Source: a virus (taxonomy: Duplodnaviria; Caudoviricetes). Taken from it: a stretch of 54,896 nucleotides of DNA. Where the stretch lies: IMG/VR virus record IMGVR_UViG_3300002219_000827, positions 1 through 54,896 of that record; one strand, written 5' to 3'. Below are positions 486 to 49,186 of the stretch, in pieces. The translations under genes were made by a program, and so were the position numbers. Within the stretch, counting starts at the first letter, position 1. Each line of letters begins with the position of its first letter. The notes below the pieces were generated by a model. It saw only the letters and a list, made by a program, of their open reading frames with translations, ran no database searches and was not told the origin of the DNA.

Positions 486-994
486 ACCGTGGCCAGTCTT
501 CTTTGCAATATCTCATTTTGATAGAGCCTTACCAATTGATTGGGATGCACCGAAGCCGCCGAATATCCCGAAAACCAGCCCCTGGTTTGCAATACCGCAC
601 AACAAACTTCCGAACAGAACCAATCCTGCGCAGACTGCCAGCCAATGGGGATAGGCAGAAACGAGAACAATACCCCGCGCACATCGTATCCACATTTCGA
701 ACCGTCATCACGCCACTGCTCTTTTCTGCACCATTCGCGGATTGAATATTCATCATCGGGAGACACCGGCAGGGGGAAGAAATCATACATGCTCATGCGT
801 TCGCCAGGTGGTGGACCTTTTACAAAAGAAGTAGCCCCCTTAAACTCCCGTGAGGAAAACCACGAGCCATCTGAAAAAACCAACTCCACATGGCAATAGG
901 AAGGGAGTCCCTTGGGCTTGCCGAAATACGTCCAAACCTTGATGACTTTGCCGAAGAAAGAAGTAGCCTCTTTTTTAGCTGCAAGATACATCAT
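482..994 (-). CDS. Permuted papain-like (YiiX/YebB-type NlpC/P60) protein
   Basis: HVEL...GYD...WFCSE motif order (His before Cys); start at 994 (MMYLAA) gives an ATGA overlap with the endolysin stop. Confidence 0.6.
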   Translation of the reverse strand: MMYLAAKKEATSFFGKVIKVWTYFGKPKGLPSYCHVELVFSDGSWFSSREFKGATSFVKGPPPGERMSMYDFFPLPVSPDDEYSIREWCRKEQWRDDGSKCGYDVRGVLFSFLPIPIGWQSAQDWFCSEVCCAVLQTRGWFSGYSAASVHPNQLVRLYQNEILQRRLATV

Positions 995-1659
995 GCCGCC
1001 CTCCTCAATATCCACTCAAATGTCTCAGCATAGTCGGCGATCCGTTTTGCCTGGTCCTGCCCATTAATAATTTTCCTTGCCAAGAGGTAATTGCACGTGG
1101 CGTCGTTAATGTAATAACTTAGGCGCTTGCCGGTATACAGTCCATGACGCATGGCGTGAGAAGCTGCGATATATGATATTTCCGGGTCCAGCAGGGCGTC
1201 CGGGTCGCCGGAATCATTTGGCTGATCGCCAACCGTCAAATCAAACTTGCGACCATGCTTCGCTTCCCATCGGGCAATTACTTCCGGGTAGGCTTTTGGC
1301 AATTCCCGTTCGAGCATTTCATAATTGTTTTTCCCGGTGTTTTGAGATAGTCCGCGTCCAGGGTAGTCCGCCCCTTCTTCCGGAGTATCGTTACCAAGAA
1401 CCTTCCCTACTTTGGTTTGGCTCCCGTACCGCTTGATAAAATATTCTCGGGTGCCGTATTCCCTGATTGGACGGAAAGTGTCTCCGGTTTCCCACTTGAA
1501 CGTGGCGAACATATATGCCGCCCACCGGATGTCCATTATTTTGTCATCAGCTTCAAGGAAGCGCAGAATGGCTTCGAGGGCGTTCACCTGAGCCTGCTTG
1601 ATTCGTCCAAACTTCCTGCGATACCCTTCGAAAAATGTCTTACGGTCCACTATTCTCAT
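991..1659 (-). CDS. Endolysin, glycoside hydrolase family 19-like
   Basis: YMFATFKWET, GRGLSQNTGKNNY and ARKIING motifs of phage GH19 lysins. Confidence 0.8.
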   Translation of the reverse strand: MRIVDRKTFFEGYRRKFGRIKQAQVNALEAILRFLEADDKIMDIRWAAYMFATFKWETGDTFRPIREYGTREYFIKRYGSQTKVGKVLGNDTPEEGADYPGRGLSQNTGKNNYEMLERELPKAYPEVIARWEAKHGRKFDLTVGDQPNDSGDPDALLDPEISYIAASHAMRHGLYTGKRLSYYINDATCNYLLARKIINGQDQAKRIADYAETFEWILRRAA

Positions 1660-1662
1660 TTT

Positions 1663-1833
1663 TTACCTCTGAACTAAAATAGGCCGCTCCGCTATTTTAG
1701 ATTTCGCATTTTCGACAGCCGCGCTCTTCGCCGCCTTCACCGTCACTCCCTCGCCATGCCCCCATACTCCGTTGAGCCTCAGGGATACGCGGAAACCAGC
1801 GCCGCGGCGAGAAGGGAGGAAGTCGGTTATCAT
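1663..1833 (-). CDS. Small hypothetical protein (56 aa, MITDFLPSRRG...), not in ORF track
   Basis: Fills the gap between genes; ATG overlaps the upstream stop (ATGA). Confidence 0.45.
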   Translation of the reverse strand: MITDFLPSRRGAGFRVSLRLNGVWGHGEGVTVKAAKSAAVENAKSKIAERPILVQR

Positions 1834-2291
1834 CCAGCCCCCCCCTCTTCGATCTCGAACGGTCTTGTTTCTCGCGTCATGAATGGATGGGGGATCCCGT
1901 CACGCGGATAATCGGTTGCCCTCCGTCCGAATCTCTCCTGGCGGCAGGAATTAAATTCGCTCTCCAGGCGGTTGAGGCGATTGCTTATATCGTGTGTGTC
2001 ATGATTCTCTAAACAGCGATCATGCTCCCCTTCCAGGCGGGAGAGGCGGTTATCTATGCCGGTCACATGGTGGCTGCTCCCACGCTGCCCATCAAGCACT
2101 CCATGCAGCGCTTCCCTGAAGTCCTTTACGGCTTTCTCCAGGTTCTCTTCCAGCTTCCCAATCGACTCCCGAATATCCTGATATATCCGAGTGAGTGCCA
2201 TCAGGAATAGTTTGGAAATCAGCGCTATGGCTGTCAGGAGAAAGCCCACCAGAAACACCAAGAACCACTGATCTACAGAACTCCAATCCAT
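1830..2291 (-). CDS. Membrane-anchored coiled-coil protein (holin/antiholin-like)
   Basis: N-terminal TM helix, coiled coil, RRATD motif; first gene of the lysis cluster. Confidence 0.5.
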   Translation of the reverse strand: MDWSSVDQWFLVFLVGFLLTAIALISKLFLMALTRIYQDIRESIGKLEENLEKAVKDFREALHGVLDGQRGSSHHVTGIDNRLSRLEGEHDRCLENHDTHDISNRLNRLESEFNSCRQERFGRRATDYPRDGIPHPFMTRETRPFEIEEGGAG

Positions 2292-2490: not shown

Positions 2491-2536
2491 AAAAAGAAAC
2501 CCCGACAACGTTTTTAAAGACGATGCCGGGGTTTCT
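2491..2536 (-). terminator. Intrinsic terminator closing the CRISPR-repeat-like sRNA
   Basis: AGAAACCCCGGCATCG / CGTTGTCGGGGTTTCT stem followed by a T-tract on the minus strand. Confidence 0.65.
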
Positions 2537-2579
2537 GGTACCCATTCCGGGTTGAAACTTACCCGCTAAATATAATTCT

Positions 2580-2608
2580 GTTTCAATCCACACCCGTTAC
2601 CAGGTGAC
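2580..2608 (-). ncRNA. Solitary type I-C-like CRISPR repeat (candidate Racr/crRNA mimic)
   Basis: GTCACCTGGTAACGGGTGTGGATTGAAAC: 5' GTC, 6-bp hairpin with GUAA loop, 3' TGGATTGAAAC handle; no cas genes or array in the window. Confidence 0.65.
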
Positions 2609-2629
2609 TGTTCAATATAATTATGAACA
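2609..2629. promoter_or_regulatory. 21-bp imperfect palindrome, copy 1 (TGTTCAATATAATTATGAACA)
   Basis: Matches four other intergenic copies. Confidence 0.6.
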
Positions 2630-2655
2630 CTATCCTACTTTGATTAAAGGTTCAA
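2627..2655 (-). promoter_or_regulatory. Sigma70-like promoter upstream of the solitary repeat
   Basis: TTGAAC-N17-TAGTGT in an AT-rich intergenic gap. Confidence 0.45.
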
Positions 2656-2668: not shown

Positions 2669-5600
2669 TTACGTCAACTGCTCCTGCTCCCAGGCCATTT
2701 TCCGCTTATTCGGTTTCGCGGAAAGCGCCTGCTTGATGGTTTGCGCCTTGATGATCGGCACCAGGCCCGACGCCTGGGACTCACGCAGATCCTTGTTGAA
2801 CCGCATGATTTTCAACATCACTTCTTTCCGCTCGGCCCCTGGCGCAGCCATTCTCAACTTTGCCAGCAGGTCACTCCGTTCCTCTTTCCAATGTGCCTTC
2901 AAGCCGTATTCAATGTTCATCAGATCACTTCGTTCCGACACCCTTGACGGCTGAAAGCCAAGCGTCCGTTTAATGGCCTCGCCGCCTGTGTACTTCATCG
3001 GCTTGCCATTTTCGTCAAACAAGACCTTCCCGGAGTAGCTGGTTGCACCCTTGGTTGACATCCGGTAGGCCCGCATGGCTCCGGCCAAGACTTCCGGGGA
3101 CAAGTTCTCCATGGTGCGGTAGATATCGCCACGGCTTGCCGCCACCGCCGCACGGCTACCTTTCTGCACCAGGCCTGTCATTACCCCGCCCGCCGCGTCC
3201 GGCAGAGACTCACCGCCGATCAACGGCGATACGATGGGGATCTGCAGGCGAATAGCATTCGATATATTCACTCCGGCCGCACTTGCTGCCCCATGCCAGG
3301 CAAAGCCGTGAATCATCTCACCTAATGATCCATATTCCTTCGCGTGTTTCGACGTCCATTTCCGGAAAGCCAATTTTGGGCTTTCCCCGAAAAACATCTG
3401 ATAAAGTTTATCCAGTTCATCACCGCCAGGCAGGGCCATCGCCCCGCCGATGATCGCGGTAGAAACTGCATAGCGTAGCAGGGCCTTCATGTCTTCCTTC
3501 TCGCCGCTGGTCATCCGGTTGAAAATCCAGTTCCAGGTGTTCCACATAAAGCTCTGCAAGGCATACACGGTTCGCCCCAGCGGCTTCTGGGCAAAACCGG
3601 GAAGGTTCGCCCGGCTCATCTCGAAGTTTACCGCCCGGTTGACTGCCAGGGCTTTCTGCAATGACTCATCACGGGATAGCCCGTCAGCACGGAAGGTGCG
3701 ATAGGCCGCCAGGATCACCGTCTTTCGGTTCAACAACTCAACTTCCTGGAATGGCATAAGGGCCTTGTCGGTCAACGTGTGCATAAAGCTGGAGACTTTA
3801 CCGGTAACCCCTTCCCGTTGACCGCTCATTTCGTGCACCGCGGTCTCCATCTCTTGCAATTTGAAAATCTCCGAAGCGAACAGCCTTTTATCCGATTCAG
3901 AGAGCTTCCCGGAGAGGATATCCTTCTGTGCTTTTCCTATTGCCCATATGGCACTTCGTTTCGTGTGCCGCCCCAGTTCCGCTATACCCAAGGTCCACGG
4001 CTGCGTCGAGTTGATCAACATCGATGATACCTTGAATCCAAGATACGTTAACGTGGCCACGGCCCGCATGTTACCGCTCACCTGGTCGGCAAAACCCATG
4101 TTCCGCAGGTTATCCACGATGTATTTATGTGCCCACTTCTTCACCTCGGGCTTTGCATAACGGAAGTGCTCGAACTGCTCCTGGGCATACCTCGCCTTGG
4201 AGAGCATCCCGGCGGTACCGGTCATGTAATCGTGATAGCCATTAATGGTATTATCCGCGTCATAGCCTTCGATCAGGTACGGAGCCCGGCGGATCCGGTG
4301 AGCTCCGGCGCCGCGAGCCATTAGCACTTCGGCGGTTGACTGCAGGATCTTCTGCCGCAGGGCGGCCGCTTCGTTTTTACTGATTTCACCTGTTTTCGAA
4401 GCCCGGTTGATAGCCTCCAGTTGTGCCTGTTCCATTGCAAAATCGTTTTTCATATCGCCATACATATCTTCCGTGAGCTGGTCGACAAAACGGTGCTCCG
4501 TCTCGTACTGCGCCCAGTCCAGATAGTTATGGGGAATTGCCTTTTTCAGATCCTTTTCAACCTCGGCATGGTGTTGTCCGGCCTTGCTTTCGGTTCGCTG
4601 CAACCGCATATAGACCTTGACCCGAATTCGCCCACTTCCCAGCTTTTGCAATTCATTTTCATGATCCTTGATGGTAGAAGGAGCTTCGCCGTCTTCAATC
4701 GCCTGCTTCAATGCAGCCTTGCGCCGTTCAATCAGCAGTTCGTTCTCCAGTTGCAGTTTTGGAATAATTTCCGAGGCCTTTTCCTGAAAGCGTTTTATCT
4801 GCTCCGAAGGCATAGACTCAGCCATTAATTTCGCATGTTGCAGCTCGTCCAGTTCCGTCCCTAACTTCTTCTTTTCCTCAGTCGTGGCAGTTGCTATTTT
4901 CGCCTGGAGCTTTTCAATCTTTTTCTTAAAGACCGCCGTGGCGTTTTTATAGGTGGTAACCAGTTGTCCACCATTAGGCAGATGCTGATATTTTAATCCC
5001 AGTCTCGCGGTCAGTTTCTTCAACTCGGCAGCGACTTCCGCACTTGGGAAATAAGGCAGCAAGGCCTGCATGGAGTCCTTGTCTCCCCGCACATCCCACT
5101 TGAGGCCGTTGATCACCTGATAGACGTTCACCTGGTAATCACCCTCGCCATGGTTACGCGGCAACCAACCGGGCCGCTCGGCCAGGCGGTTGCGATAGTC
5201 TGACAAATGCTTTTCAATGAGCTCTTTCGGCAATCCGGCATCATACATAAACTGGCGGGACATATCCTCAATAGAATCAGCCACAACGGTATCGATGTGA
5301 GTCCTCACCTTTTGATATACAGCAAATGCCTGATCGGAAACCCCTGCGGCCTTTTTATCCTCCTTGACCATTTCCAGCGTCTTATAAACTTTACCGTGGA
5401 GGTCTCCACGATACAGCAACAGGTCGACACCCTCCCGATCAGCGACCGGCAACTTATTGAAGGCATCGGTAATCCGCCCCCATTCCGTTGTGCGGTCCGA
5501 ATTTTCCCACTGACTGTAGGTTTTCTTCAAGCGCTCCAGGAGTCCCGGAGCTTCCGCCGCGGGTCCGTCAAAGCCAAAGAAGCGCAACAGATACTCCATT

Positions 5601-8600
5601 TTTGTTTCTTCGCGCTTGATACCCGTGTCCACGAACGGCCGCTTGTTCTCATCCGTCGTAGCATCCGGATTTTGCAGGAAATATGCCGCCCCATTGAGGA
5701 TATTCTGAGGAGTAACATCGACAAACCAGCGCTTTGCCCTGGACCAGTCGAGGGGATTCAACATCCGGGCAATCTTCTTCCACGCCTCGCCGCCCTTCAT
5801 CTCCCCGACATACCCGCTAAAGCGATCAGCCAGGGCATAGCGGATACCCGTATCAACCGGCATTTCCTGTACATCCGCCATTAACACGTCTGCAGGAAGC
5901 CCAACAAACAGATCATAGACGAAGCCCGGCGGATTTGTATTCTGAATGAATACCCTGCCAGTTGGCAGTTTATCCACTGGTAGCGCAACAATCTTCACCG
6001 TTCGGCCATCTCGTGCTTTACTCCAGGCAATCTCTTGGGCAGTGGCATAGGAAGTGGTCCACCAAGAACCTTTCAGATCCTCACCGGCAGCGTAGTGCCC
6101 GCGATCCGGATTAAAAGGAACTACACCAGGGCTATGCTGTTGATCAGCTTCGTAAAATGCCCGGAACAGTAACCGGCCCGGCTCGTCGTAATCCCTGACG
6201 GTGGTTTCGATGGCCTCAATTGCCTTCGCCTTATCCGCCTCCAGAACCTCGCGTTCCGTGGTATTGAGGGAAACACCCTTATCAACGATCTGACCCTTCA
6301 CGTCTTCGAGACGGGCAAGAGCGAACTTTGTATCTAGTGGCAGCGTTTTAACAGAAGCTCCCACCCAATTGCGCCGTGCTCTTTCAAAAGCATGAAGCGG
6401 ATTCATCCCTTTGATTGAATCGTCGTACCAGGTTTCTCCATCAAACGAATAGTAGACATCCAGCTCAAACGGGTACTTTGTCTCGCTGTATCCTTTCGAC
6501 TCCTTGCCGAAACCCATCAGGCTGTCAGATACATTCTCATACCCCGTAACGGTGTCTTCATCGAACGCCTGATATTGTTTCGGACTGAAAGCGAATCTCG
6601 CCCCACCCGGTTGCCAATTAGCAAACGTCTCCAACTGATCGTCAGTAACACCCTGCTCCCGGAGACTCCGTAACATGGCACCGTAGTCAATCCCTGATCC
6701 CTTATCCTCATTCCTCGTTCCTTCCTTACCTTCCACAAACCTCCGGGCCTTACCCAGCAACTCCCGGATCTCCGCATCTCCATAGCCTGCATTCCAGCCG
6801 ATACTCCGGAGGAATTCTTTTACCGCGGCTATTACCTTGGAAAGGATAGTCGAGTCCATCCCGGTTCGAGCATCACGGCCCAGCATCTCTTCCGCTGCCT
6901 CAATGCGACCATCCCGGGTTTTCAGGTCCAGGCCATAGCGAGCCGCCAGTTCCTTCCACTCGGCATTGCGCTTATTGGCATACCAGAGCGCCGCTTGGAG
7001 CATGTGCTTTTCATAAGCGTCCTTTGCCATGATTCCACGCAGTCCGTGGTGAACAACGACTTCCTCAAGCAGGACCTGCTTCGCCTCTTCCACCGAGCGG
7101 AAGTTGTCGGCAACGTAAACAACCTCATTCCCCAGGTAAACCGCCTGCAGAAGACGTTGCGGGATACCCCGCTTCGCGGCATCATCCAGAGCCCGCTTCG
7201 GCAATTCCGCCGTCGTCTGGACTACTCGCCAGGGCGGGGAGTTCGGCATGTTCTTGTAAACTGGTTCAAAGGCAGTCTGGATGTCGCCTGCCGGGAGGCC
7301 GAAGGAGGCTTGCCCCGCAGCTACGGCATACCTGGGGTTACCCTCTTGACTCGCCCGAGTCGCAATTCTCGGTGATTCAAAGTCCCTTTCTTCAAAAACC
7401 GGAGAACCATTTTCATCAGCTACTTCCAGGTAAGGCACGTTCTCCGTGCTGGATCCTTTGTCCACGGTAACGAAATACCCGTCACTGGTCCACTGGTGAC
7501 CGGTTACCGGATACGGTTTCCCTTTCACATAGACATCTCCGCCTTCCGGTGCACCATGTCGCAGCCAGGAAGGTGGCGGAATCGGATTGCCTTCCAGGTC
7601 GGACATAAGATCTGCCAGCATTTGTTTCTTTTTTTCCAACTCAGCAGCTCGCGGAAAGGTTTCTTTTGCAGACTGACGAAGTGTTTTGACACTCTCAGTG
7701 AGTGATGTTTCCTGGTCTTTAGCGCTCTCGTTGTGCTTCTTCAGGTTGCGAAGGATAGCCTCCATGCTGGCAACACTCGGTTTCGCTTCGAGAAAGTTTT
7801 CAATATAGTTGCGGTCCTGCTCATCTGCCCAGTTTCGGCTTTTGTATTTCCCTTCCGGCCAGGCATCAGGCATGGTCAGGCTGATTTCATACTTCTCGGA
7901 AAACTGGGACCAGCGCCCGACAATATCGAAACCGTAGATTACCCCGATCTTCTCTTTATCGGAAAAGCGGCCCATCTTTTCCAGACGAGCATCAAGGGCC
8001 TCTTGAGCTTTGGCCCTGTCAGTAAAAGTCTCCTTGCCGATGCTCGCGCTAAAGGTCTCCCTGGCGCCCTCGTACCGCTCTATCATCTTATCAATAATGC
8101 CGCGTCGCCTTTTACTGTCGTCAATCTTCTTTTCACTTTTATTCGCGGCCTCTTCGGCGTCTTCAATACCAAAGGCATGCATCCGCTCCCGGTTCTGCAG
8201 TTTCTCGATATCCTTCTTGTACTTCTCACGGAGCAATATACGCGGATCCCCAGCGGCCTCGGAAAGCGTCTGAGCAAGATCACTCACGTTATCCGATTCA
8301 TCCATATTCACCGCATCGCCATCGATTACACGCACATCGTCTTTCGCCTTCAGGAAGGCCTTGATGAAACGATCCTTGATAACCAGAACCTGCCAGCGCC
8401 GGCCGTCCAGTTTTTCCGTGAGGTAGCGGATTTCCAGCACTGTGTTCCACTTGTTTCCCTGCCGGTGGCCACGACCATTCCGCTGCTCCAGTTCACCCGG
8501 CATCCACGGTGCATCAAGATGGTGGATAGCCCTCAGGTTTTCCTGCATGTTCACGCCGACACCCAGGGTTTTCGTGTTGCCGATCACTACGCGGATATCA

Positions 8601-11600
8601 CTCCGGTTCATGGCGTCGGCGGTCTGCTTCCGTTTTTCTTTGTTCACCTTGCCGTCAATAATGGCAATCTGTTCCCTGGGGATTCCCCCCGCAACCAGCT
8701 TATCAACGATGTCCTTGGACAGATTGAAACGATCCTTGGTCGTTTTTGTCTTGGTGCCGTCCTTATTGGTTTTGGTGGAAGTGGATTTGTCAGAAAATCC
8801 CCGCTCCATGAAAAGAACCTGCGTAGTTTTATCGTGCTCCTTATAGATTTTCAGCAGATTCCTGACGCATCGATTCACCTTGCTTTCCGGATCATCGTAC
8901 GAATCCTTATTGACCAGGCGCACATCCATGCCGGCATTTGCTGCCGCTGTTTCCACCAAAACCGGAGAGGCCGGGTGCCCGGAAAGCATGATCTCCCTGC
9001 GTTCTTTCGGGCTTGCCTGACGGAATACCTTAGCCAGCCGTGCCAATTCCCCTAGAATAACCCGCTGTTGGCTTCCCATGGGGCAGGTTTCCACGATGAT
9101 TTTCTTATACGGCCTGCCAATCGGATCTTCATTCCGGCCATTCACCAGACGATCCCGCTCTTCAGCGGTAAGGGTTGCGTCCTGGAGTGTCTTGCCGTTT
9201 ACTTCTCTCGGCTTGAATTCGGGCATGTCGTCGGCAAAGACGATATCGGTATACTGCCCCATCATTCTTCTCAATTCAGGAACATTCACGAAGGAAGCAA
9301 GCCTGGTGACAGCCTCATAGTCGCCGGCAGCCGTCAGTTCAACATCACTGGACGAATCGGCAAAGGTATTAAACCACGAATCCCAGGCCTTGATACCGCT
9401 ACGCTCCATCTCTCCATCCATCACGTAGCGCATCATGTGATAGATTTCGGTCAGGGTATTGGTAATCGGCGTGCCGGTAAAGATGTGGACACCGCCACCG
9501 GAATTCATTCGCTTCACATAGCCGGTCAACAAGTGCAGGGCAAGGCTCTGGTCAGACGTTGCCGTATTAAGGCCCCGCATGCGCATTTTTGTGGTAATCG
9601 GTGGCTTTTTAAACTCATGGACCTCATCCACCATAACCATGTCCACGCCCAACTGTTCAAAAGATACCGCGTTTTCCCGGGAAGCCCGCATGGCCATCTC
9701 GTCAATCTTCTTGATGATCCGGTTTCGGGCATGGACCAGGTTCTTGGCCGTGACGCTCCGGACCTTCTTCATGGCCTCTTCATCATTCATATCGCTAATG
9801 GATAATTCAACCCCGTCGTCCTGAGCGGCTTCTATTGCTTCCTGCTCCAAAGCCGATATCTCTTCCGCCGCCAATTCATTCAACGTCTCCCTGGTGAGTC
9901 CGAAGCGCGAGATAAGGGAATGAGGCACCACAACAGCATCCCAATCATCATTGGCGATCTGACGCATAGTGACATCGATCTTATCCGGCGTGAGGTTATC
10001 CACGTAGAGCACTTTCGCTGCCGGGTACATCTCCTGAATCTCACGGGAAACGGTAGCACTGTTGGCATTGTGGGCGAAGATCAGCGGCTTTTTGGCTATG
10101 CCATAGCGTCTTGACTCCACGGCTATACCGCCCATGGTGTAGGTTTTGCCTGTCCCTACTTCATGGGCGTACAGGCCACCACGATTGACAAGGCCCCGCC
10201 AGATTGCATCGACCTGATGCTTTCGCAGGCTGAACGGGGAACTACCACGAGTCAGGGCCATGCCCTCGAAGTTGAGGAACGATCCATCATACTTCGTGTC
10301 GGCAATGGCATTCATCACCTCGTTGTATTCTTTTTCCAGGGCAAGCTTGCGAGCGGAATCTTTCCATACCCAGGTTGAAAACTCTTCCCGGATCCGGCCA
10401 GCCTTTTCATTGGCCTCTGCCGTGGCTACGCTATCAACAACTTTGTTGCCGTCCTCGTCCCGGCCCCACACCGTTATCGCCGAATTGTTCATAGCTGCCT
10501 GAACAAGCTTGTTGAACTTATACGAAGGATGTCCCCAGACCGTTGTAGCCTCCGGTTTTCCGTTCAGCCCATCCCTGGTGAATTTCACTTTCCAGGCTCC
10601 CAGCTGAAAAGCTACGTCAATACCGCTTTCACCCTGTTCGCCAAGCATATCGGCGATAAAGCGTTTGTAATGGTCAGGGGAAACCCATGGGGCTCCCAGC
10701 TTTGCCTCAATTTTGTAATACGGCTGATCGGGAGGAACGATCTTTTTCAGTTCCTCAATATTCCGCGACATCTCCATACCATCAGCCTGTGCCGCTTCGG
10801 CCTCACGGAGCTTGCGCCGGACGTTTCCGGATAGATACTGGTCCGACACCTCATAATTACCTGCAGGCGTCAGAAAGATTGAACCACTATTCAGAAGATC
10901 CCGGGTAACATCGTTGAGCGGTCTTCCGGTAAGTTCCGCTACGCGATTCAGATCGATATTCAGATTTTCATTACGGGCGAGAACATAGGCGTCCTGGACG
11001 CTGGGATTGGCAATGGTGCGGGTAGAGCGCACCGTTGATTCAGACAGGATTTTGGCGGGTCGATACACCGTTCCTTTTGAACTGTTTTCAGTAACCTCAA
11101 GGGCCGCCAGAGTTGCATAGAACGGATCACCCGCTTTACGGATGAACGTCAATCCATTTGAATCATTGATCCGCCCATACTTTTTAACGAATGTTTCGTA
11201 CTGGCTGCGAAGATCATTTCGCAAAGCATCGGCAGGTTCCCCAGCTCTCTCGGCATCGATAAGAGCCCCATACGCCTTGCGAATCTTAACCAGAGAGGCA
11301 ATCTGGTTTTCCCTCTCCCGCGTCTCCTTCTCGCTCTTCACCTCGTAGGAAACGAGTTCTTTCAACGGAGCAAGGTATTCTCCCTGCACAACATAGAGTC
11401 CACCGTTGTCGCCAACGGTGACACTCTGCTGCCGGTCTGTCGTATTGTTGGTAATATAGGAAATGATCTTCTTCGTTTCACTCCGTGCGTCATAGATACC
11501 CGCTGGAACCAGCTCCACAATCCGGGCGAGACGTTCGGCGTAGTTTGAAGGCCGGTTGACGGTCATACCACCACGACCACGCGGCCCGCCACTGGCAAAA

Positions 11601-14600
11601 TCAAACGCTCCGAGAACATGATCCGGATGAGATTTCCAGTATTCATTGATCTTGATATCGCCGTTCGGGGTCGTATGGTCAACGACATCCATCCAGCCAC
11701 TGCCGGCCAGATCCGTATTCGACTGCTCGCGCTTCTTCAGGACGATAATATCGGTAACAACATCAGTACCGGCGTACTGCTTGAATGCACCGGACGGTAG
11801 ACGGAAGGCTGCAACAAGATCGCCTTTCTTGGCAAGCTCCATCCTGGTCAATTTGCCGATTTTGTCCATGGTGCCGGAACTGGTAACGCCGATTATCAGG
11901 CCACCGGGCCGCACCTGATCGATAGCTTTAAGAAAGAAGTAGTCATGCAGAGAGGGGCTTATCTGCCGGTAACGACGGTCAGCCGGGCCGTCTTTGGCAA
12001 ACGGCCAGTTACCGATGATAAGATCGTAGAAATTGTCTGAGGTTTTGCTTTCCTGGTAACCCTTGATCTGGATATTTGCCTGCGGGTAAAGAATCTGTGC
12101 CATTCCGCCGGTCAGGGTATCAAGTTCAATACCGGCCAGCTTGCTCCGCTCCATGACGTTACGTGGCATGAGGCCAAAGAAATTGCCTATGCCAATGGAA
12201 GGCTCAAGGATCCGGCCGCCCGCGAAACCAAGCCTTGCGGCAAGCTCCCACATCGCCCCGACAGTGGGAGGATCAGTATAATGGGCATTGATGATAGAGT
12301 TTTGGGCACTCTTCCAGTCTTTTTCGCCAAGGTGTTCCCGTAGCCACTGGGATTCCTTTTCCCATTCCGGTTTGGGTCTTGGATGATCCCAGCTGCCCTG
12401 GAACAATTCTTGTCCGAATGAGCCCCAGCCGGTATAGGCCGCCATATAATCAAGTTCTTCAGGGGTAGGTGTTCTGCCTTCGGAAGTGATCGACTGCAAC
12501 GCCTCGATAGCCGCCCTGTTCTTCGCAAAACGGACCTTCGGCGTGCCACCGACAAGTTTTTCGGGGTCGCTAATGTGGTAATTTGATCGAGCTAGGTTTG
12601 GTTCGTCTCCCAAGGAAAGTGAGGCTCGGGCTCCATCTCCTCGTCGTTCTCCGCTTCCTCCATTTCCATCATCAGCCAATCCTGTTCGGCTTGTTCCCGT
12701 GCGTCCGTCGCGCACATTCCCGCCTTCAGGTTTTTCGCTATCGCTTCGTCGCACTTCGCGTCGAGGACGTGAGCCAGTTCCTTCGCTGTCCCCATCGCTG
12801 TCAGACGCTGCCACATCTGCGGCCGGTACAGTTCCCAAAACTTCAGCATCCGCTCCTGCACCTGTCCGCCCTTGCCCAGTGTCAGCTCTTCCAGCCTGGC
12901 CGATTCCTTCCGCACCCATTCCGCGAACGTCGGATCTTTCCGCAACGGAACCACTCTCGGATCGTTCATTTTCCACACCTCCATCCACAGACGAATTAAA
13001 CTCGTCCTCATTAAAGAGTTTATCAGACTCCTGACTATCCTGCAACCCGGTTTTTTCTTCGATTTTTGCCTTCTCACCAGATTCAATCTGAGCTTCCGTA
13101 TCCATCCCGGCATTATCAAAACCGGGATAGTTCCGCACTGCCAGATAGAAGGCTTTCAGGAAAGGACTGATTGCTTCTCCAAGATCTGTAACCATTCGCT
13201 TCGAATACTCCGTAAACGAACGGGCTCCCGCCTCGATATGGTACCCGGCAAGGTCTATCCCAGCTTGGATCATCTCCGGATCAAGCCCGGCATTCAGCTG
13301 AGAAAGTTTCTTGCGCAGGATCTCCCGGGCACGGTCGGCCTTGTCCTTGGTAAAGACAGCATTCTTGTCACCATAGGACCCTTCGGAGTTTTGAGTTTTT
13401 GGTTTTGAGTTTTGAGTTGAATCCTCCAGCTCCTTTTCAGTTTCAGCTACTGGACCTTTCTCTTTCTCGACATCTATCCGCTGTTCACTGTCAACTGTCC
13501 CCTGCCTTTCCCCTACTTCCGCTTTTTCCTTCGCTTCTCCCTGTTGTTTATCAAGGTCCGCTCCTTTCCCCTTCAGCGCAGCAGTAACCGGATGATCAAC
13601 CTTTGTGCTCGGCAGTGCCGCTATCTCTTCAGGTGACAGATCCTCGAGCTCTTTTCCTCCGCTTTCCACCTGGGCCTGGACTTTCCATTTATCAATCCAG
13701 CCTTCCTTGATCCTCTTACCCAGCCAGGCAGGCCCCAGCGTCTTCTTACCGGCGTACTCTTCCGCAATCAGATCAGCAATCTTACCGGCTATCGCTTCGT
13801 CTGCTCCCCCAGCCTTCAGCTTTGCAACGATCTTTCCCCAATCCTTCAACCAGGGGAATAACTCTTCCTTATTGCTCCGGCCGTTGTCCATCGACCCGCG
13901 TTCCCAATAGGAGGCCCTTTCACGAGCCGACTGGAGAAGACCACGATCCGCGTCCGTAACGCTGCCAAGCATGTCTGCATCAGGAGTGTTTGACGGTGCT
14001 TCCGGAGCACGCCAGCCATTTTTGAGCCGGTCCATAACTTCATCAGGCGTCACCATCTCGGTTACACCGGTCTCGGGATTGACCAGGGAAACATTGGCAT
14101 ACTTCGGCCCTGTCTCACCCTGGTTTACAATTGGCACTTCTGCTCGCCGCTTAAATGAATCCAGTATCCGCTGCGCATAGGTATTCGGATGCTCACGGAC
14201 CTGTCGCATCAAATGAGTTTTCCCGGCCTTAATTTCTCCCTCGGCCCAATCACGGGCTTCATCAAGTACCAGTTCGTCCGTGGTGGTCCCTTGAATAGGC
14301 GGCACTGAAGCGGTCACGGGAGCAGCCTCGATGTCCCCGATCCCCGGAATAGCGTTAGCCGTGGCCGCTTCAGCCGCCCGGCTCAATGGACCTTTCGGCG
14401 CTTCCGGCAAAACCGGTTGCTCCTGAGCCTCCAGATCCACTACCGGATGAGGAGGTTCACCGGCAGTAAACGAATCAGCCTCGATAGAGGCAGGTTCAAG
14501 GTTCGAGGTTTGCGGTTCGAGGTTTTCATCTTTAGCCGGTACCTGTTTTTTCCCGCTTCCACTAATGACGCCTGTACCACCGCCCATAGCCAGTCCTGCC

Positions 14601-15436
14601 ATCAGGCCTGAGGCAGCAGCTTCAGCCACACCTTCATGCCATGGTCTACCCAGCGAGATATTCTGTGCGGCCTGTTCTTGTGCTGACTGAGGAAGTTCTT
14701 CAAAGGCTCCTTCAGAAATTGCGCCTTTCACGATACGTAGCAGAATATTTTGTTTCTCACCCTGGGCGGTCCCACCGGCCAATAACGTATCGATATCCGC
14801 AATTCCAAGGCGCTGTGCCAGTTTTCCACCCAAAAGGCCAAACAATCCCGTTAATGCACCACTGCCGGCAGATACTGCCGATTGCTTCAGGGAAAGATCA
14901 CCGTGTTCGGTTGCCTGCCTCGTTTGCTCTGCCGTAGCCCCAGCGCTTATCACCCCTTCCCCCAAAGCACCCGCAACAACAGGTGCTAATTTGGGAAGAA
15001 CTTTCATGGCCTGCCTTGCGACTCCAGCTCCTCCCAACATAGAGGGGATAGACTCAATTATTGAATGAGCGACGGTCGACGGGTTTTTAACGTGTTCCAC
15101 TATTGTCGGAATAAAACCTTCAGCCTCTTCAACGGCTTTATTGGCCTCTTGTTGTTCCGGAGAATACAGATCGTCAAGAATTATTTTTGCCTCTTTTGGC
15201 CGGTATCCTACTTTTTCCGCGAGTCGGCCTGCCTCTCCACCCGTGGCAATATCAGCAATACCAACTACCGCTTCAGGAAGACCTATTGCCCCCTTCAGTG
15301 CAGATATTGCAGGATCAGCTACATACCTGCGTAACGCTCCAGATTGCTTTACAGGTTCAGGCTGTGTCATTCTGTCCAGCTGCCCCTGGTAATCTTCAAG
15401 CTCCATCTGCGCCAAAAGGTTGTCGTAGATATTCAT
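2669..15436 (-). CDS. Giant (4255 aa) DarB-like polyvalent ejection protein: N6-adenine MTase + SF2/SNF2 helicase + metallopeptidase-like + PLxRFG-like domains
   Basis: ILEPSIGIGNFF and IGNWPF (MTase); HEVGTGKT, DEVH, TGTP, QRNGRGHRQGN (helicase); LLEEVVVHHGLR; WLPRNHGEGDY; last gene of the virion module. Confidence 0.85.
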   Translation of the reverse strand: MNIYDNLLAQMELEDYQGQLDRMTQPEPVKQSGALRRYVADPAISALKGAIGLPEAVVGIADIATGGEAGRLAEKVGYRPKEAKIILDDLYSPEQQEANKAVEEAEGFIPTIVEHVKNPSTVAHSIIESIPSMLGGAGVARQAMKVLPKLAPVVAGALGEGVISAGATAEQTRQATEHGDLSLKQSAVSAGSGALTGLFGLLGGKLAQRLGIADIDTLLAGGTAQGEKQNILLRIVKGAISEGAFEELPQSAQEQAAQNISLGRPWHEGVAEAAASGLMAGLAMGGGTGVISGSGKKQVPAKDENLEPQTSNLEPASIEADSFTAGEPPHPVVDLEAQEQPVLPEAPKGPLSRAAEAATANAIPGIGDIEAAPVTASVPPIQGTTTDELVLDEARDWAEGEIKAGKTHLMRQVREHPNTYAQRILDSFKRRAEVPIVNQGETGPKYANVSLVNPETGVTEMVTPDEVMDRLKNGWRAPEAPSNTPDADMLGSVTDADRGLLQSARERASYWERGSMDNGRSNKEELFPWLKDWGKIVAKLKAGGADEAIAGKIADLIAEEYAGKKTLGPAWLGKRIKEGWIDKWKVQAQVESGGKELEDLSPEEIAALPSTKVDHPVTAALKGKGADLDKQQGEAKEKAEVGERQGTVDSEQRIDVEKEKGPVAETEKELEDSTQNSKPKTQNSEGSYGDKNAVFTKDKADRAREILRKKLSQLNAGLDPEMIQAGIDLAGYHIEAGARSFTEYSKRMVTDLGEAISPFLKAFYLAVRNYPGFDNAGMDTEAQIESGEKAKIEEKTGLQDSQESDKLFNEDEFNSSVDGGVENERSESGSVAERSDVRGMGAEGIGQAGRADTGQGRTGAGADAEVLGTVPAADVAASDSDGDSEGTGSRPRREVRRSDSEKPEGGNVRDGRTGTSRTGLADDGNGGSGERRGDGARASLSLGDEPNLARSNYHISDPEKLVGGTPKVRFAKNRAAIEALQSITSEGRTPTPEELDYMAAYTGWGSFGQELFQGSWDHPRPKPEWEKESQWLREHLGEKDWKSAQNSIINAHYTDPPTVGAMWELAARLGFAGGRILEPSIGIGNFFGLMPRNVMERSKLAGIELDTLTGGMAQILYPQANIQIKGYQESKTSDNFYDLIIGNWPFAKDGPADRRYRQISPSLHDYFFLKAIDQVRPGGLIIGVTSSGTMDKIGKLTRMELAKKGDLVAAFRLPSGAFKQYAGTDVVTDIIVLKKREQSNTDLAGSGWMDVVDHTTPNGDIKINEYWKSHPDHVLGAFDFASGGPRGRGGMTVNRPSNYAERLARIVELVPAGIYDARSETKKIISYITNNTTDRQQSVTVGDNGGLYVVQGEYLAPLKELVSYEVKSEKETRERENQIASLVKIRKAYGALIDAERAGEPADALRNDLRSQYETFVKKYGRINDSNGLTFIRKAGDPFYATLAALEVTENSSKGTVYRPAKILSESTVRSTRTIANPSVQDAYVLARNENLNIDLNRVAELTGRPLNDVTRDLLNSGSIFLTPAGNYEVSDQYLSGNVRRKLREAEAAQADGMEMSRNIEELKKIVPPDQPYYKIEAKLGAPWVSPDHYKRFIADMLGEQGESGIDVAFQLGAWKVKFTRDGLNGKPEATTVWGHPSYKFNKLVQAAMNNSAITVWGRDEDGNKVVDSVATAEANEKAGRIREEFSTWVWKDSARKLALEKEYNEVMNAIADTKYDGSFLNFEGMALTRGSSPFSLRKHQVDAIWRGLVNRGGLYAHEVGTGKTYTMGGIAVESRRYGIAKKPLIFAHNANSATVSREIQEMYPAAKVLYVDNLTPDKIDVTMRQIANDDWDAVVVPHSLISRFGLTRETLNELAAEEISALEQEAIEAAQDDGVELSISDMNDEEAMKKVRSVTAKNLVHARNRIIKKIDEMAMRASRENAVSFEQLGVDMVMVDEVHEFKKPPITTKMRMRGLNTATSDQSLALHLLTGYVKRMNSGGGVHIFTGTPITNTLTEIYHMMRYVMDGEMERSGIKAWDSWFNTFADSSSDVELTAAGDYEAVTRLASFVNVPELRRMMGQYTDIVFADDMPEFKPREVNGKTLQDATLTAEERDRLVNGRNEDPIGRPYKKIIVETCPMGSQQRVILGELARLAKVFRQASPKERREIMLSGHPASPVLVETAAANAGMDVRLVNKDSYDDPESKVNRCVRNLLKIYKEHDKTTQVLFMERGFSDKSTSTKTNKDGTKTKTTKDRFNLSKDIVDKLVAGGIPREQIAIIDGKVNKEKRKQTADAMNRSDIRVVIGNTKTLGVGVNMQENLRAIHHLDAPWMPGELEQRNGRGHRQGNKWNTVLEIRYLTEKLDGRRWQVLVIKDRFIKAFLKAKDDVRVIDGDAVNMDESDNVSDLAQTLSEAAGDPRILLREKYKKDIEKLQNRERMHAFGIEDAEEAANKSEKKIDDSKRRRGIIDKMIERYEGARETFSASIGKETFTDRAKAQEALDARLEKMGRFSDKEKIGVIYGFDIVGRWSQFSEKYEISLTMPDAWPEGKYKSRNWADEQDRNYIENFLEAKPSVASMEAILRNLKKHNESAKDQETSLTESVKTLRQSAKETFPRAAELEKKKQMLADLMSDLEGNPIPPPSWLRHGAPEGGDVYVKGKPYPVTGHQWTSDGYFVTVDKGSSTENVPYLEVADENGSPVFEERDFESPRIATRASQEGNPRYAVAAGQASFGLPAGDIQTAFEPVYKNMPNSPPWRVVQTTAELPKRALDDAAKRGIPQRLLQAVYLGNEVVYVADNFRSVEEAKQVLLEEVVVHHGLRGIMAKDAYEKHMLQAALWYANKRNAEWKELAARYGLDLKTRDGRIEAAEEMLGRDARTGMDSTILSKVIAAVKEFLRSIGWNAGYGDAEIRELLGKARRFVEGKEGTRNEDKGSGIDYGAMLRSLREQGVTDDQLETFANWQPGGARFAFSPKQYQAFDEDTVTGYENVSDSLMGFGKESKGYSETKYPFELDVYYSFDGETWYDDSIKGMNPLHAFERARRNWVGASVKTLPLDTKFALARLEDVKGQIVDKGVSLNTTEREVLEADKAKAIEAIETTVRDYDEPGRLLFRAFYEADQQHSPGVVPFNPDRGHYAAGEDLKGSWWTTSYATAQEIAWSKARDGRTVKIVALPVDKLPTGRVFIQNTNPPGFVYDLFVGLPADVLMADVQEMPVDTGIRYALADRFSGYVGEMKGGEAWKKIARMLNPLDWSRAKRWFVDVTPQNILNGAAYFLQNPDATTDENKRPFVDTGIKREETKMEYLLRFFGFDGPAAEAPGLLERLKKTYSQWENSDRTTEWGRITDAFNKLPVADREGVDLLLYRGDLHGKVYKTLEMVKEDKKAAGVSDQAFAVYQKVRTHIDTVVADSIEDMSRQFMYDAGLPKELIEKHLSDYRNRLAERPGWLPRNHGEGDYQVNVYQVINGLKWDVRGDKDSMQALLPYFPSAEVAAELKKLTARLGLKYQHLPNGGQLVTTYKNATAVFKKKIEKLQAKIATATTEEKKKLGTELDELQHAKLMAESMPSEQIKRFQEKASEIIPKLQLENELLIERRKAALKQAIEDGEAPSTIKDHENELQKLGSGRIRVKVYMRLQRTESKAGQHHAEVEKDLKKAIPHNYLDWAQYETEHRFVDQLTEDMYGDMKNDFAMEQAQLEAINRASKTGEISKNEAAALRQKILQSTAEVLMARGAGAHRIRRAPYLIEGYDADNTINGYHDYMTGTAGMLSKARYAQEQFEHFRYAKPEVKKWAHKYIVDNLRNMGFADQVSGNMRAVATLTYLGFKVSSMLINSTQPWTLGIAELGRHTKRSAIWAIGKAQKDILSGKLSESDKRLFASEIFKLQEMETAVHEMSGQREGVTGKVSSFMHTLTDKALMPFQEVELLNRKTVILAAYRTFRADGLSRDESLQKALAVNRAVNFEMSRANLPGFAQKPLGRTVYALQSFMWNTWNWIFNRMTSGEKEDMKALLRYAVSTAIIGGAMALPGGDELDKLYQMFFGESPKLAFRKWTSKHAKEYGSLGEMIHGFAWHGAASAAGVNISNAIRLQIPIVSPLIGGESLPDAAGGVMTGLVQKGSRAAVAASRGDIYRTMENLSPEVLAGAMRAYRMSTKGATSYSGKVLFDENGKPMKYTGGEAIKRTLGFQPSRVSERSDLMNIEYGLKAHWKEERSDLLAKLRMAAPGAERKEVMLKIMRFNKDLRESQASGLVPIIKAQTIKQALSAKPNKRKMAWEQEQLT
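12592..12969 (-). CDS. Nested alternative-frame gene (125 aa, MNDPRVVPLRK...) inside the giant ORF
   Basis: GGAGGT RBS 7 nt upstream of the ATG, internal promoter and globular helical composition, while the main frame is low-complexity here. Confidence 0.65.
   Translation of the reverse strand: MNDPRVVPLRKDPTFAEWVRKESARLEELTLGKGGQVQERMLKFWELYRPQMWQRLTAMGTAKELAHVLDAKCDEAIAKNLKAGMCATDAREQAEQDWLMMEMEEAENDEEMEPEPHFPWETNQT
13017..13045 (-). promoter_or_regulatory. Internal sigma70-like promoter for the nested gene
   Basis: TTGCAG-N17-TAAACT about 50 nt upstream of the ATG at 12969. Confidence 0.5.
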
Positions 15437-16974
15437 TATGCCTCTCCCCGAAGTTGCTTCAGTTGTTTTCTCAGCGTGGAGACCTCGTTCAGAATGGCAT
15501 CCTGTCCCGGTAGGTTTCGTCCCGGCTGCATGTTTTTAGCCTGGGCCTTCAGTAATGCCTCAGCCTGCTTGAGTTTCCCGGCAACAATCATGGTTTGGGC
15601 TTCCTTACTGCCGCTGGCCCGCTGCCGAAGATCCTGTATTACTCTCGATTTTATAAATCCTTCAGAGACAGACTGCTGTTCTTCAGGCGACAGGTCTTCA
15701 GGGCTTTTCCCGACTGCCTGCGCATATGTGGTTTTGGCCTGCTCCAAATCAGCGGTATTTTCCGTCAGGTACTTCCTCCAGTAATCGTGCCTGTCGGTCA
15801 GGAATTTATCCGCGTCTTTCTTCTCGGCCGCCAGTTCCTTGGCTTGGCCTTGTTTGATGCCATCGGGACTAATGCCAAACTCCCTGGCCTTCGCTTCTGC
15901 AAGGGTATTCTTCGTTTGTGCCTCTATCAGCGGAGCATCGATAGCCAGCAACTTATTCTTGTGCGCCATCTCGTTTTCCTGATTCAAAGAATCAATCGCC
16001 AACCTCTGCCCCTGCTGATCGACAAACTGCTGTTTCTGCAGATCCGTAATCTGCGTATCGTAGCGACCGTCCTTATTATTCGCCGCAAGCACATTCACCA
16101 GGTCGGTATTACCCATCCCCAAGGTCTTCATCTGCTCCGCTGTCGGAGCCATGCCGTTAGCCGCATTGATCCGCACCGCATCGGCAACCTGGTCCTTGTA
16201 TGCCTGAGAAACAATCCCCTGATCCTGCCGGTCAATCAGATTACCCACGAGACTGTTGGAATTCTGCGCCTGCCCCTTTACCCGCCCGGAACCATCATGG
16301 CCCGGTTTCAATGGATCCCCGATCCCGCCGATATCCTGATACTTGACCTTCTTCCCGCCGAAGATAGCGGACCCGCTGCCGGGATCATCACCAATTGCCG
16401 GAGCCGTCTGTGCCGCCGTCGGGAAAGCAGGAGGAACAGAAAGAGCCGGCGCCGCCTTTTCAAGTGCCGTGCTGATCGTCGGATTCCCTCCTACCGCTCC
16501 GACTGCCGTGTTGGCCGCAAGATTCGAGAGAGCAGCAGGCACGGCAGCCGTGGTTTTTACCGGCAGCTCCGCTGCTTCCGCAACACTGGCAACCCCGGGA
16601 ATAACCGTCCTTCGCCCCTTTACCTGCCCCAGACTCTCCGCCATATAGTTGGAAATCTTCGCACCTTCCACCCTGTTTTGCGCTTCCGGAGAAGTATATT
16701 CATAAAGCTTGCCCTCCTTGTCCCCCGCGATCGCATTCGCAATCGACCCGGAAAACCCTCCCACCAACGACTTGACCGGCCCGGCCCCTTCATCGGCCAA
16801 CTCCTGAGCATTCATAAACCGGTAGGACTTCATATCCGGAGTATCCCCGATCCCCGGAATGGCAGCGGCCTTCTTCCGGACCGGCTTCACCGGAGAGGCA
16901 GAGACATCGGCAATGCCCAATCCGCTCTTGATCTGCTTCACTTCGTTATCCGGCAATCCCCAAGCGTTCGCCAT
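15436..16974 (-). CDS. Probable internal virion/ejection protein (512 aa)
   Basis: Ala/Gly/Gln-rich with a helical C-terminus; directly precedes the giant protein. Confidence 0.55.
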   Translation of the reverse strand: MANAWGLPDNEVKQIKSGLGIADVSASPVKPVRKKAAAIPGIGDTPDMKSYRFMNAQELADEGAGPVKSLVGGFSGSIANAIAGDKEGKLYEYTSPEAQNRVEGAKISNYMAESLGQVKGRRTVIPGVASVAEAAELPVKTTAAVPAALSNLAANTAVGAVGGNPTISTALEKAAPALSVPPAFPTAAQTAPAIGDDPGSGSAIFGGKKVKYQDIGGIGDPLKPGHDGSGRVKGQAQNSNSLVGNLIDRQDQGIVSQAYKDQVADAVRINAANGMAPTAEQMKTLGMGNTDLVNVLAANNKDGRYDTQITDLQKQQFVDQQGQRLAIDSLNQENEMAHKNKLLAIDAPLIEAQTKNTLAEAKAREFGISPDGIKQGQAKELAAEKKDADKFLTDRHDYWRKYLTENTADLEQAKTTYAQAVGKSPEDLSPEEQQSVSEGFIKSRVIQDLRQRASGSKEAQTMIVAGKLKQAEALLKAQAKNMQPGRNLPGQDAILNEVSTLRKQLKQLRGEA

Positions 16975-16998: not shown

Positions 16999-17019
16999 CG
17001 TTCAATATTATTGTGAACA
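16999..17019. promoter_or_regulatory. 21-bp motif copy 2 (CGTTCAATATTATTGTGAACA)
   Basis: Lies just downstream of the promoter at 17031-17059. Confidence 0.6.
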
Positions 17020-31557: not shown

Positions 31558-31578
31558 TGTTCAACTTTGTTGTGAACA
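31558..31578. promoter_or_regulatory. 21-bp motif copy 3 (TGTTCAACTTTGTTGTGAACA)
   Basis: Intergenic, upstream of scaffold/capsid genes. Confidence 0.6.
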
Positions 31579-44434: not shown

Positions 44435-44827
44435 CTATGCCGCCCGCAAGCTCTCGACGGCCCGCAGCAGCTCCGCAACCGCAAACTTCGCCGGCCGCCC
44501 CTCAGCCTGCAGCGCCGCCTTAATCCCATCCAGCACCTGCATCAACTCCAGCGGATAACAGACCAGGCCCATTCGATGCGCCAGCCAATCCAGGGGAAAC
44601 TGATTACCCATCTTCTTCATCAGCAATTCAATTTTGTCCGGCGGGAAAGAGCGTGAATCAGTAGATCGCATCATCCGCGAGAAATGGCAGTAATCGATCT
44701 TCAATTCCCAAGCGGCTGACTCCGGCGCCTGGCCCGCCAGCAAATAACAGCGCCGCAAGGCTTCCGTCATATTCGGCACCGTATCCAGCAGATCCGCATA
44801 CGAACCACCTCCGATTATTTCAGACAT
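44435..44827 (-). CDS. CII/YmfL-like DNA-binding regulator
   Basis: HTH-like AAWELKIDYCHFSRMM, LDWLA..G; start overlaps the intI stop. Confidence 0.55.
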   Translation of the reverse strand: MSEIIGGGSYADLLDTVPNMTEALRRCYLLAGQAPESAAWELKIDYCHFSRMMRSTDSRSFPPDKIELLMKKMGNQFPLDWLAHRMGLVCYPLELMQVLDGIKAALQAEGRPAKFAVAELLRAVESLRAA

Positions 44828-45836: not shown

Positions 45837-45892
45837 TTTCTGACTCCTTTCAATACATTGAGTTAAAATCACGTGGTGGAGATAGACTGCAT

Positions 45893-49130: not shown

Positions 49131-49186
49131 TTCTTGGCTCCTTTCAATACGTTGAAGTGAAAACAGGTGGTGGAGATAGACTACAT

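Follow-up and report, generated by a model that had tools for sequence, protein, structure and literature searches.

The closest described counterparts of the element considered here are RNA anti-CRISPRs (Racrs), which in the text of the paper reporting them are solitary CRISPR repeat units that stand behind promoters and often lie beside anti-defence genes (PMC10651486). The type I-C example in that text, RacrIC1, lies 11 nucleotides (nt) after acrIC5 and protects phage from type I-C; SRUFinder, as described there, accepts such units from 90% identity, 90% coverage and a bit score of 41.1 upwards (PMC10651486). Cracrs, as presented in the text of a preprint, carry a spacer-like segment with at least nine matches, proximal to the protospacer adjacent motif (PAM), to a host cas or toxin promoter (10.1101/2024.10.29.618823). 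RNA anti-CRISPRs have been known only since 2023, and among those of type I-C one has been tested. Here we describe a solitary type I-C repeat-like unit in a provirus of 54,896 bp (IMG/VR record IMGVR_UViG_3300002219_000827; "the window" hereafter means this whole stretch), where it forms part of an RNA element on the minus strand, from 2655 to 2491, between a DarB-like antirestriction gene and lysis genes. We give roughly even chances to the reading that this unit serves as a type I-C decoy of the Racr kind within the leader of the lysis genes, a judgement drawn from repeat likeness, predicted fold and comparison with related phages.

Geobacteraceae is the probable host family. Among one genome per species (185,579 species), the only relative of the provirus was found on contig C16 of a Geobacter metagenome-assembled genome (MAG), and this contig is chromosomal, its 20–26 kb part being collinear with 40 of 41 family genomes at 65–75% nucleotide identity. 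An earlier note on this DNA, made from the letters alone, had proposed a stand-alone type I-C CRISPR RNA (crRNA) mimic, which presupposes a host lineage with type I-C systems; such systems are present, with Cas8c above its curated cut-off in 16 of 87 Geobacteraceae genomes. The Cas8c flanks hold arrays in 12 of these 16 genomes, and all 12 have 37-nt repeats that end in (C/T)GAGGATTGAAAC and take the form GTAGCGCCCG-N10-CGGGCG/CGGGTG-AGGATTGAAAC, with the stem CGGGCG in seven, CGGGTG in three and another sequence in two. The consensus of the Rfam family CRISPR-DR9 (RF01322) is this same Geobacteraceae repeat. The comparison with host CRISPR repeats that the earlier note had suggested is positive: CGGGTGTGGATTGAAAC in the window agrees with the CGGGTG-variant host repeat CGGGTGAGGATTGAAAC at 16 of 17 positions, covering the 3′ stem arm and the 11-nt handle, and the host-type 17-mer CGGGYGAGGATTGAAAC, allowed one mismatch, finds a single match in the window and none in 100 shuffles. 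When 4227 Rfam families were searched in permissive mode, CRISPR-DR9 was among the top matches, below its gathering threshold, and aligned with the unit from end to end both in the window and in its closest relative.

That relative, L002, is one of nine records (eight viral contigs and one Geobacter MAG contig) collected through the C-terminus of the DarB-like protein; it shows 87% amino-acid identity and also carries the unit, and its element region was recovered identically in two metagenome records. In L002, CGGGCGAGGATTGAAA is an exact 16-mer of the commoner host repeat variant (0/200 shuffles), and the left arm GCGCCTG, T.G wobble included, equals that of a natural repeat variant in genome G014, so that all 23 positions flanking the replaced apex agree; the 5′ GT, left arm and wobble of the unit are likewise features of that variant. 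Both phages have the apical 10 nt of the host repeat swapped for a GNRA tetraloop, GTAA in the window and GCAA in L002, while the stem base and handle are kept. The stem CACCTG/CGGGTG of the window becomes CGCCTG/CGGGCG in L002, with a G-C pair in place of an A-U pair as a compensatory change, and from these paired changes the RNA structure of the unit appears to be under selection. The L002 handle reads AGGATTGAAAA, and the approximately 13 nt that follow the handle in the window are absent. Window and L002 agree fully or almost fully in the promoter region, in the 16-nt core of a second hairpin (hairpin 2) and at the base of the terminator. The unit shows about 8 differences over its 29 positions, where two flanking scaffold stretches of 20–21 nt show none and the −10/operator stretch shows one. 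Since each variant resembles a natural repeat variant, this divergence looks like a tracking of host repeats rather than decay, and we consider the repeat mimicry itself very probably real.

All the parts that the earlier note had read on the minus strand, namely a promoter, the unit, a second hairpin and a terminator, are found there (Table 1). The unit consists of GT, a 6-bp stem (2606–2601 paired with 2596–2591, with one T.G pair), the loop GTAA (2600–2597) and the 11-nt handle TGGATTGAAAC (2590–2580), and it is intergenic, flanked by a stop at 2669 and a start at 2482, 61 nt after the antirestriction gene and 19–48 nt downstream of the promoter elements. The handle has the length and the place at the hairpin base that the note had given, but its first base is T, unlike the A found in 12 of 12 host-family arrays. 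As a look-alike the unit is indeed solitary: the 29-mer occurs once in the window (0 expected) and still only once at up to three mismatches, and the handle likewise occurs once, hairpin 2 holding only a reverse-complement likeness at 9 of 10 positions. With one repeat copy only, a CRISPR array or mini-array was rejected; a host array mis-binned into the provirus was rejected as well, because phage genes flank the unit on both sides and a related phage has kept it. The 141-nt RNA folds into both hairpins and the terminator at −46.1 kcal/mol (z = −3.6, with 0/200 shuffles as good), the L002 RNA also folds with the hairpin intact (z = −5.6), and the unit hairpin is present in the minimum free energy and centroid structures of both. 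A simple consensus scanner misses the promoter, whose −10 box departs from TATAAT, and also the terminator, whose loop exceeds 8 nt, so both calls rest on conservation across relatives and on the fold. In the alignment, the window, L002, L003, L015 and L005 all have TTGAYN and TANTRT separated by 17 nt of varying sequence, the hairpin 2 core is identical across the window, L002, L003 and L015, and the terminator stem is kept with apical changes in five relatives. The window-specific insertion CAGAATTATATTT provides the last C of the handle together with an AT-rich, spacer-like start.

Table 1. Coordinates of the RNA element and of the neighbouring genes in the window
Feature	Coordinates	Strand	Basis or remark
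−35 box TTGAAC	2650..2655	−	Read in sequence; conserved in relatives
−10 box TAGTGT, weak	2627..2632	−	3/6 positions as in TATAAT; 17-nt spacer from −35
Operator-like palindrome TGTTCA-N9-TGAACA	2609..2629		Overlaps −10 box and RNA start
Solitary 29-nt type I-C repeat-like unit, GTCACCTG-GTAA-CGGGTG-TGGATTGAAAC	2580..2608	−	Sequence, fold, repeat comparison
Window-specific insertion of about 13 nt, CAGAATTATATTT	2568..2580	−	Absent from L002 (alignment)
Hairpin 2, GCGGGT-AAGTTTCA-ACCCGG	2547..2566	−	Conserved leader scaffold; fold
Intrinsic terminator: GC-rich hairpin and U-tract 2499–2491	2491..2536	−	Fold; conservation
Orphan Cys-rich open reading frame, 57 amino acids	2309..2482	−	Inserted between terminator and lysis genes
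Protein of 153 amino acids, N-terminal hydrophobic helix then charged repeats	1830..2291	−	First conserved gene 3′ of leader
Endolysin-like gene, same cassette	991..1659	−	phrog_181, E = 1.4e-21
DarB-like antirestriction protein, 4255 amino acids, methyltransferase and helicase parts	2669..15436	−	phrog_10089, 1816.6 bits, E = 0; Helicase_C match

The remaining relatives separate the unit from its surroundings. L003 and L015 have the promoter, palindrome, hairpin 2 and terminator before the orthologous downstream gene but lack the repeat-like unit, L005 has only a degenerate version of the cassette, and the cassette is missing at this place in L004, L215, L217, L218 and the MAG prophage. In L003 the cassette stays with the lysis genes despite 3.7 kb between it and the DarB-like gene, and from this, together with its position in the relatives that lack the unit, it follows that the cassette of promoter, leader and terminator belongs to the lysis genes. 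On this alignment the unit is best described as an insertion into a pre-existing lysis-gene leader. Thus, although the promoter and terminator elements of the stand-alone RNA proposed earlier are present, it is not a free-standing gene, since the leader is shared with L003 and L015. The terminated-leader layout is conserved in four related variants, with an endolysin-like gene and a membrane protein downstream, and orthologues of the 153-amino-acid protein gene lie immediately 3′ of the leader in L002, L003/L027, L015 and L005. Searches for further cassettes added little: a metagenome scan returned only the L002 type (two records) and the L003 type (one record), the downstream protein P0001 used as a query found no relatives, the hairpin 2 16-mer matched mostly a terminase coding motif, and four further GGATTGAAA matches in four related viral records were none of them adjacent to a hairpin. 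The 3.7-kb insertion in L003 (L003:5200-8900) holds several small reverse-strand open reading frames (ORFs), and the region between the DarB-like gene and the leader appears to be an accessory-gene hotspot.

An alternative explanation is one in which the unit has no anti-CRISPR role and is either a neutral captured repeat fragment or a GNRA hairpin of the boxB/nut or attenuator kind that controls terminator read-through. In phage lambda, the PR′-6S-tR′ region consists of a promoter and then a short terminated RNA ahead of the lysis genes, and boxB sites are GC-rich 5–7-bp stems with GNRA-type loops. The scaffold has a comparable layout, with a promoter, an RNA of about 100–130 nt and an intrinsic terminator just before lysis genes, and the unit hairpin resembles boxB in stem and loop. 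This agrees with the conservation of promoter, hairpin 2 and terminator before the same downstream gene in the two relatives without the unit, and with the best weak Rfam match of the scaffold, which is to a leader family, rnk_pseudo (22.1 / 25.3 bits against a gathering threshold of 55). The operator half-site TTGAACA also resembles the handle TTGAAAC, which makes capture by microhomology, or a likeness due to chance, conceivable. However, the likeness to lambda belongs to the scaffold and not to the unit, there is no sequence relation, and the Rfam leader-family matches of the scaffold fall below threshold. A boxB-like or attenuator hairpin gives no reason why two diverged variants should both match the host type I-C repeat over 16–17 nt that include the single-stranded handle; a neutral relic is not expected to keep its stem by compensatory change along with a GNRA loop, nor to differ more than its flanks; and relatives without the unit manage the same terminator. 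No Q-like antiterminator or pause site turned up, no search having been aimed at antiterminators. We regard this explanation, in either form, as rather unlikely.

By the palindrome that overlaps it, the promoter looks co-regulated with late genes. The pattern GTTCA-N(7-11)-TGAAC has five occurrences in the window against 0.33 expected, and its form GTTCA-N9-TGAAC, which spans 2610–2628 at the promoter, recurs at 17000–17018, 31559–31577 and 53314–53332, the first two of these recurrences lying directly upstream of other minus-strand late genes. None of these three other sites has a leader or a terminator. The palindrome thus looks like a DNA control site common to late promoters, and is probably the binding site of a phage late-transcription regulator, as predicted from its recurrence. 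A shared palindrome of the general form TGTTCA(A)-N7-9-(T)TGAACA is seen in the relatives L209, L215 and L218 too.

Geobacteraceae type I-C loci also contain repeat-like elements outside their arrays, and two of these bear on what the phage unit may do. In G013 (L188:6184-6300 (+) = L038:684-800), a tiny hairpin followed by GGATTGAAAC lies just upstream of cas5c-cas8c and continues into a 28-nt spacer-like segment and then a repeat-type 3′ hairpin. With every sixth position ignored, 13 of 15 counted positions of the segment match a TTC-flanked site 41 nt upstream, and such an upstream match is, in the text of the preprint, the signature of a CreR-type autoregulator (10.1101/2024.10.29.618823). 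By this likeness the G013 element resembles a CreR-type autoregulator of a Geobacteraceae type I-C system. In G048 (L048:6150-6560 (−)), a mini-array of four degenerate repeat-like elements stands 3′ of a cas7c-like ORF, each element having a 5–6-bp stem and a 4–6-nt A-rich loop before AGGATTGAAAC; the elements form two pairs with about 270 nt of non-coding-looking sequence between the pairs, and the fetched flanks yielded no target site. To judge from this layout, the type I-C locus may hold a CreTA-like module. The pattern of the phage unit, allowed two mismatches, matched only the first G048 element and thus one of 87 genomes, and this element agrees with the L002 unit at 23 of 28 positions without gaps. 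Because these host elements have 5–6-bp stems, a 6-bp stem is evidently enough for the host's own Cas proteins.

Such regulators raise the question of whether the phage RNA is itself a guide, as the earlier note had offered as one possibility. After Cas5c cleavage, a Cracr- or CreR-like RNA would load Cascade through its handle and following segment and bind a partly matching, TTC-flanked promoter without cutting, the target being a host cas or toxin promoter or the operator-bearing late promoters of the phage itself or of a rival. The architecture agrees with the published one, in which, in the text of the preprint, one repeat-like element precedes a spacer-like segment that a rho-independent terminator or a second repeat-like element closes (10.1101/2024.10.29.618823), and the host family's type I-C loci, in G013 and G048, carry the kind of crRNA-like regulator that such RNAs imitate. 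Furthermore, the 13-nt insertion makes the window handle canonical (...GAAAC), and the segment AGAATTATATTTAGC agrees at 12 of 15 counted positions with TTC-flanked minus-strand sites starting at 2624, in its own promoter, and at 17014, in the operator before the gene at 15436..16974; among 20,000 shuffled segments none reaches the self-match score within 120 nt upstream. These two sites are not independent, since the operators resemble each other. In addition, the self-match is mismatched at seed position 2, its TTC is part of the operator half-site, and a local duplication begun at that C explains the match. The target that the earlier note had expected did not appear: no TTC-flanked seed of at least 7 was found in 242,263 nt covering 16 Geobacteraceae type I-C loci, where a cas promoter target was likewise absent, as was a PAM-proximal host-promoter match of at least 9 bp of the Cracr kind, the TTC-flanked partial matches being confined to the phage. 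TTCANAATTATATT has eight matches in 87 genomes against two for a control, none of them on a cas8c contig or near a cas locus, and by inspection the segment shows no likeness to four host spacer-like segments. The 34 nt that the note had taken for a spacer are mostly conserved scaffold, common to relatives without the unit, and because L002 lacks the insertion, its post-handle segment is a different sequence in a different register. Taken together, we hold a guide function to be quite unlikely.

The post-handle segment differs between window and L002 in sequence and register, is mostly hairpin 2 and gave no host target in the 16 loci, and a decoy or a competing non-targeting crRNA is therefore favoured. 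We hypothesize that the unit is a stem-shortened mimic of the host-family type I-C repeat, or of the repeat-like element in the host's crRNA-like regulatory RNAs, which would occupy the 5′ portion of a short leader RNA, about 130 nt long and terminated, made from the conserved promoter between the DarB-like and lysis genes. Host Cas5c would recognise the hairpin base and the adjoining handle and would cut at the 3′ stem base, between 2591 and 2590. The 3′ product would carry the handle at its 5′ end, then 34–43 nt of RNA that is structured and non-targeting, and last a GC-rich 3′ hairpin, a predicted RNA close to crRNA geometry, and could tie up Cas5c, Cas8c and Cas7 in unproductive complexes. 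The outcome would be fewer Cascade complexes with phage-targeting crRNAs, the way in which a Racr-type RNA anti-CRISPR works.

Set beside the Racrs as described in the text of their report, the locus carries in a prophage a solitary repeat look-alike that is intergenic, has a promoter within the 250 bp upstream and comes with no cas genes, and the unit directly follows an anti-defence gene, its hairpin abutting the handle as in a Cas5-processed type I-C repeat (PMC10651486). Unlike Racrs, it has 29 nt instead of a 37-nt repeat, with a GNRA tetraloop in place of the apical 10 nt, and it lies within a pre-existing lysis-gene leader rather than forming its own gene. Unlike RacrIC1, its neighbour is a DarB-like antirestriction gene and not an acr, its probable host belongs to Geobacteraceae, and its function is a prediction. 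It also differs from a genuine type I-C repeat in being single-copy without spacers and in its 6-bp stem.

Several points weigh against a decoy function. Compared with the host repeat, the unit lacks 8 apical nt, so that its coverage of the available host-family repeats is below 90% and it would probably fail the SRUFinder rule. The handle departs from the host form at position 1 in the window (T, as stated above) and at position 11 in L002 (A, not C); the exact T-handle 17-mer CGGGTGTGGATTGAAAC was found in none of 401 genomes sampled from the phylum, and the CRISPR-DR9 scores of 17.3 bits in the window and 18.8 bits in L002 (E = 0.26 and 0.091) lie well under the gathering threshold of 45. 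The earlier note had made conservation in related phages a test of its proposal, and the unit is present in only two of ten related records (window and L002). TerL relatives are found in only one of 87 family genomes, and the Geobacter MAG that carries the related prophage has no cas8c match. None of 194 spacers from 12 Geobacteraceae and three viral type I-C arrays matches the window or eight related loci (longest high-scoring segment pair 19 nt), and the spacers thus give no sign that type I-C targets this phage. Because the promoter palindrome is shared with late-gene sites, expression may be late or repressed, which would be poor timing for a decoy, and the handle can pair with hairpin 2 in the same RNA and might be hidden by it. 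Finally, we infer transcription, Cas5c binding and cleavage, and an effect on immunity from the sequence.

If the decoy function holds, RNA anti-CRISPRs would extend to phages of Geobacter-type bacteria; the word Geobacter is absent from the texts of the Racr paper, the Cracr preprint and one further preprint, although their supplementary lists, which lay outside that search, may include this record. It would also mean that a repeat can be reduced to a 6-bp stem, a tetraloop and a handle, the minimal form seen in the host's crRNA-like regulators, which would suggest what Cas5c needs. A possible route of origin is the insertion of a repeat fragment into a leader RNA that already had its promoter and terminator and that lay beside an antirestriction gene. 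Such units would escape searches for near-full-length repeats, so that the current list of viral repeat mimics may have gaps. The relatives that naturally lack the unit are ready-made experimental controls.

Short-stem units of this kind are also found in other viruses. A scan of viral contigs for CGGGYGWGGATTGAAA gave at least 117 stretches, with 93 matches in the 80 loci retrieved, and by a rough estimate many of these could be due to chance. Several matches have a complementary arm 3–10 nt upstream and stand alone between a promoter and a terminator (for example L133, L119, L137, L070 and L066), and a recurrent layout in unrelated viral contigs consists of a promoter, a single short-stem type I-C-like unit, 15–45 nt and a terminator. 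Eight viral contigs (L061, L072, L092, L094, L108, L113, L120 and L135) have a type I-C-like mini-array in common, which begins with a TTGACA-N17-TATTTT promoter, the degenerate element CCG-GCAA-CGG-ATGAGGATTGAAAT and 33 nt, and ends with the 29-nt element GTCACCCG-CTTG-CGGGTG-TGGATTGAAAC, about 32–38 nt and a terminator. This second element has the same length as the window unit, and outside the loop the two differ in one stem base. The eight mini-arrays are likely to be Cracr- or Racr-type RNAs, judged by this architecture.

Hairpin 2 adds a second relation to the handle. Its segment GTTTCAACCC is complementary to the type I-C handle, and the displayed GUUUCAACCC pairs with the handle GGAUUGAAAC at 9 of 10 positions, in a duplex of −9.0 kcal/mol that shuffled leaders reach in 0.95% (window) and 0.4% (L003-type) of 2000 trials. 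The handle-complementary hairpin is present without the unit too (L003:8900-8925, L015:8070-8095), and a GUUUCAA loop follows the second element in some of the unrelated viral mini-arrays (L092, L094, L135). The complementarity may mask the handle, be directed against host handles, or be no more than an echo of the operator half-site GTTCAAC. In its most far-reaching form, the leader would be a two-module RNA that engages the host type I-C machinery in new ways, with Cascade guided to the phage's own promoters and an anti-handle in hairpin 2; we consider this very improbable. In the first module, the inserted segment may guide Cascade to the TTC-flanked, operator-bearing late and lysis promoters (2624 and 17014), the prophage thereby borrowing a lysis repressor, and loss or inhibition of Cascade would then release lysis, a CreTA-like addiction turned to phage use. 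In the second, hairpin 2 could serve as an antisense anti-handle that blocks recognition of host pre-crRNA by Cas5c or Cas8c.

The record as a whole is a provirus, about 86% complete by estimate, with genes almost all on the minus strand. In the direction of transcription, integrases, a methyltransferase and a replication gene are followed by terminase, portal, head and other structural genes, and then by the 4255-amino-acid DarB-like gene, the RNA element, the 57-amino-acid orphan ORF, the 153-amino-acid membrane protein and the endolysin-like gene. As the earlier note had stated, there are no cas genes in the window, where a hidden Markov model search for cas5c and cas8c was negative. No tRNA (ARAGORN) and no Rfam family at its gathering threshold was found in the window either, and a tRNA, a riboswitch or another known Rfam family was rejected as an identity for the element; blastn of 2300–2900 against 50,697 phage records gave no match. 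The 57-amino-acid ORF has no Pfam or PHROG match and finds only itself among 5.8 billion proteins, and as an orphan without a family it was dropped as an anti-CRISPR protein candidate. L003 and L004 have another small Cys-rich ORF directly 3′ of the DarB-like gene. The DarB-like protein contains methyltransferase, SNF2/helicase and endolysin-like segments, and its gene makes up 23% of the record. Towards its high-coordinate end the provirus has two integrase-family genes (44820–45905 and 48294–49199, both on the minus strand), separated by about 2.4 kb.

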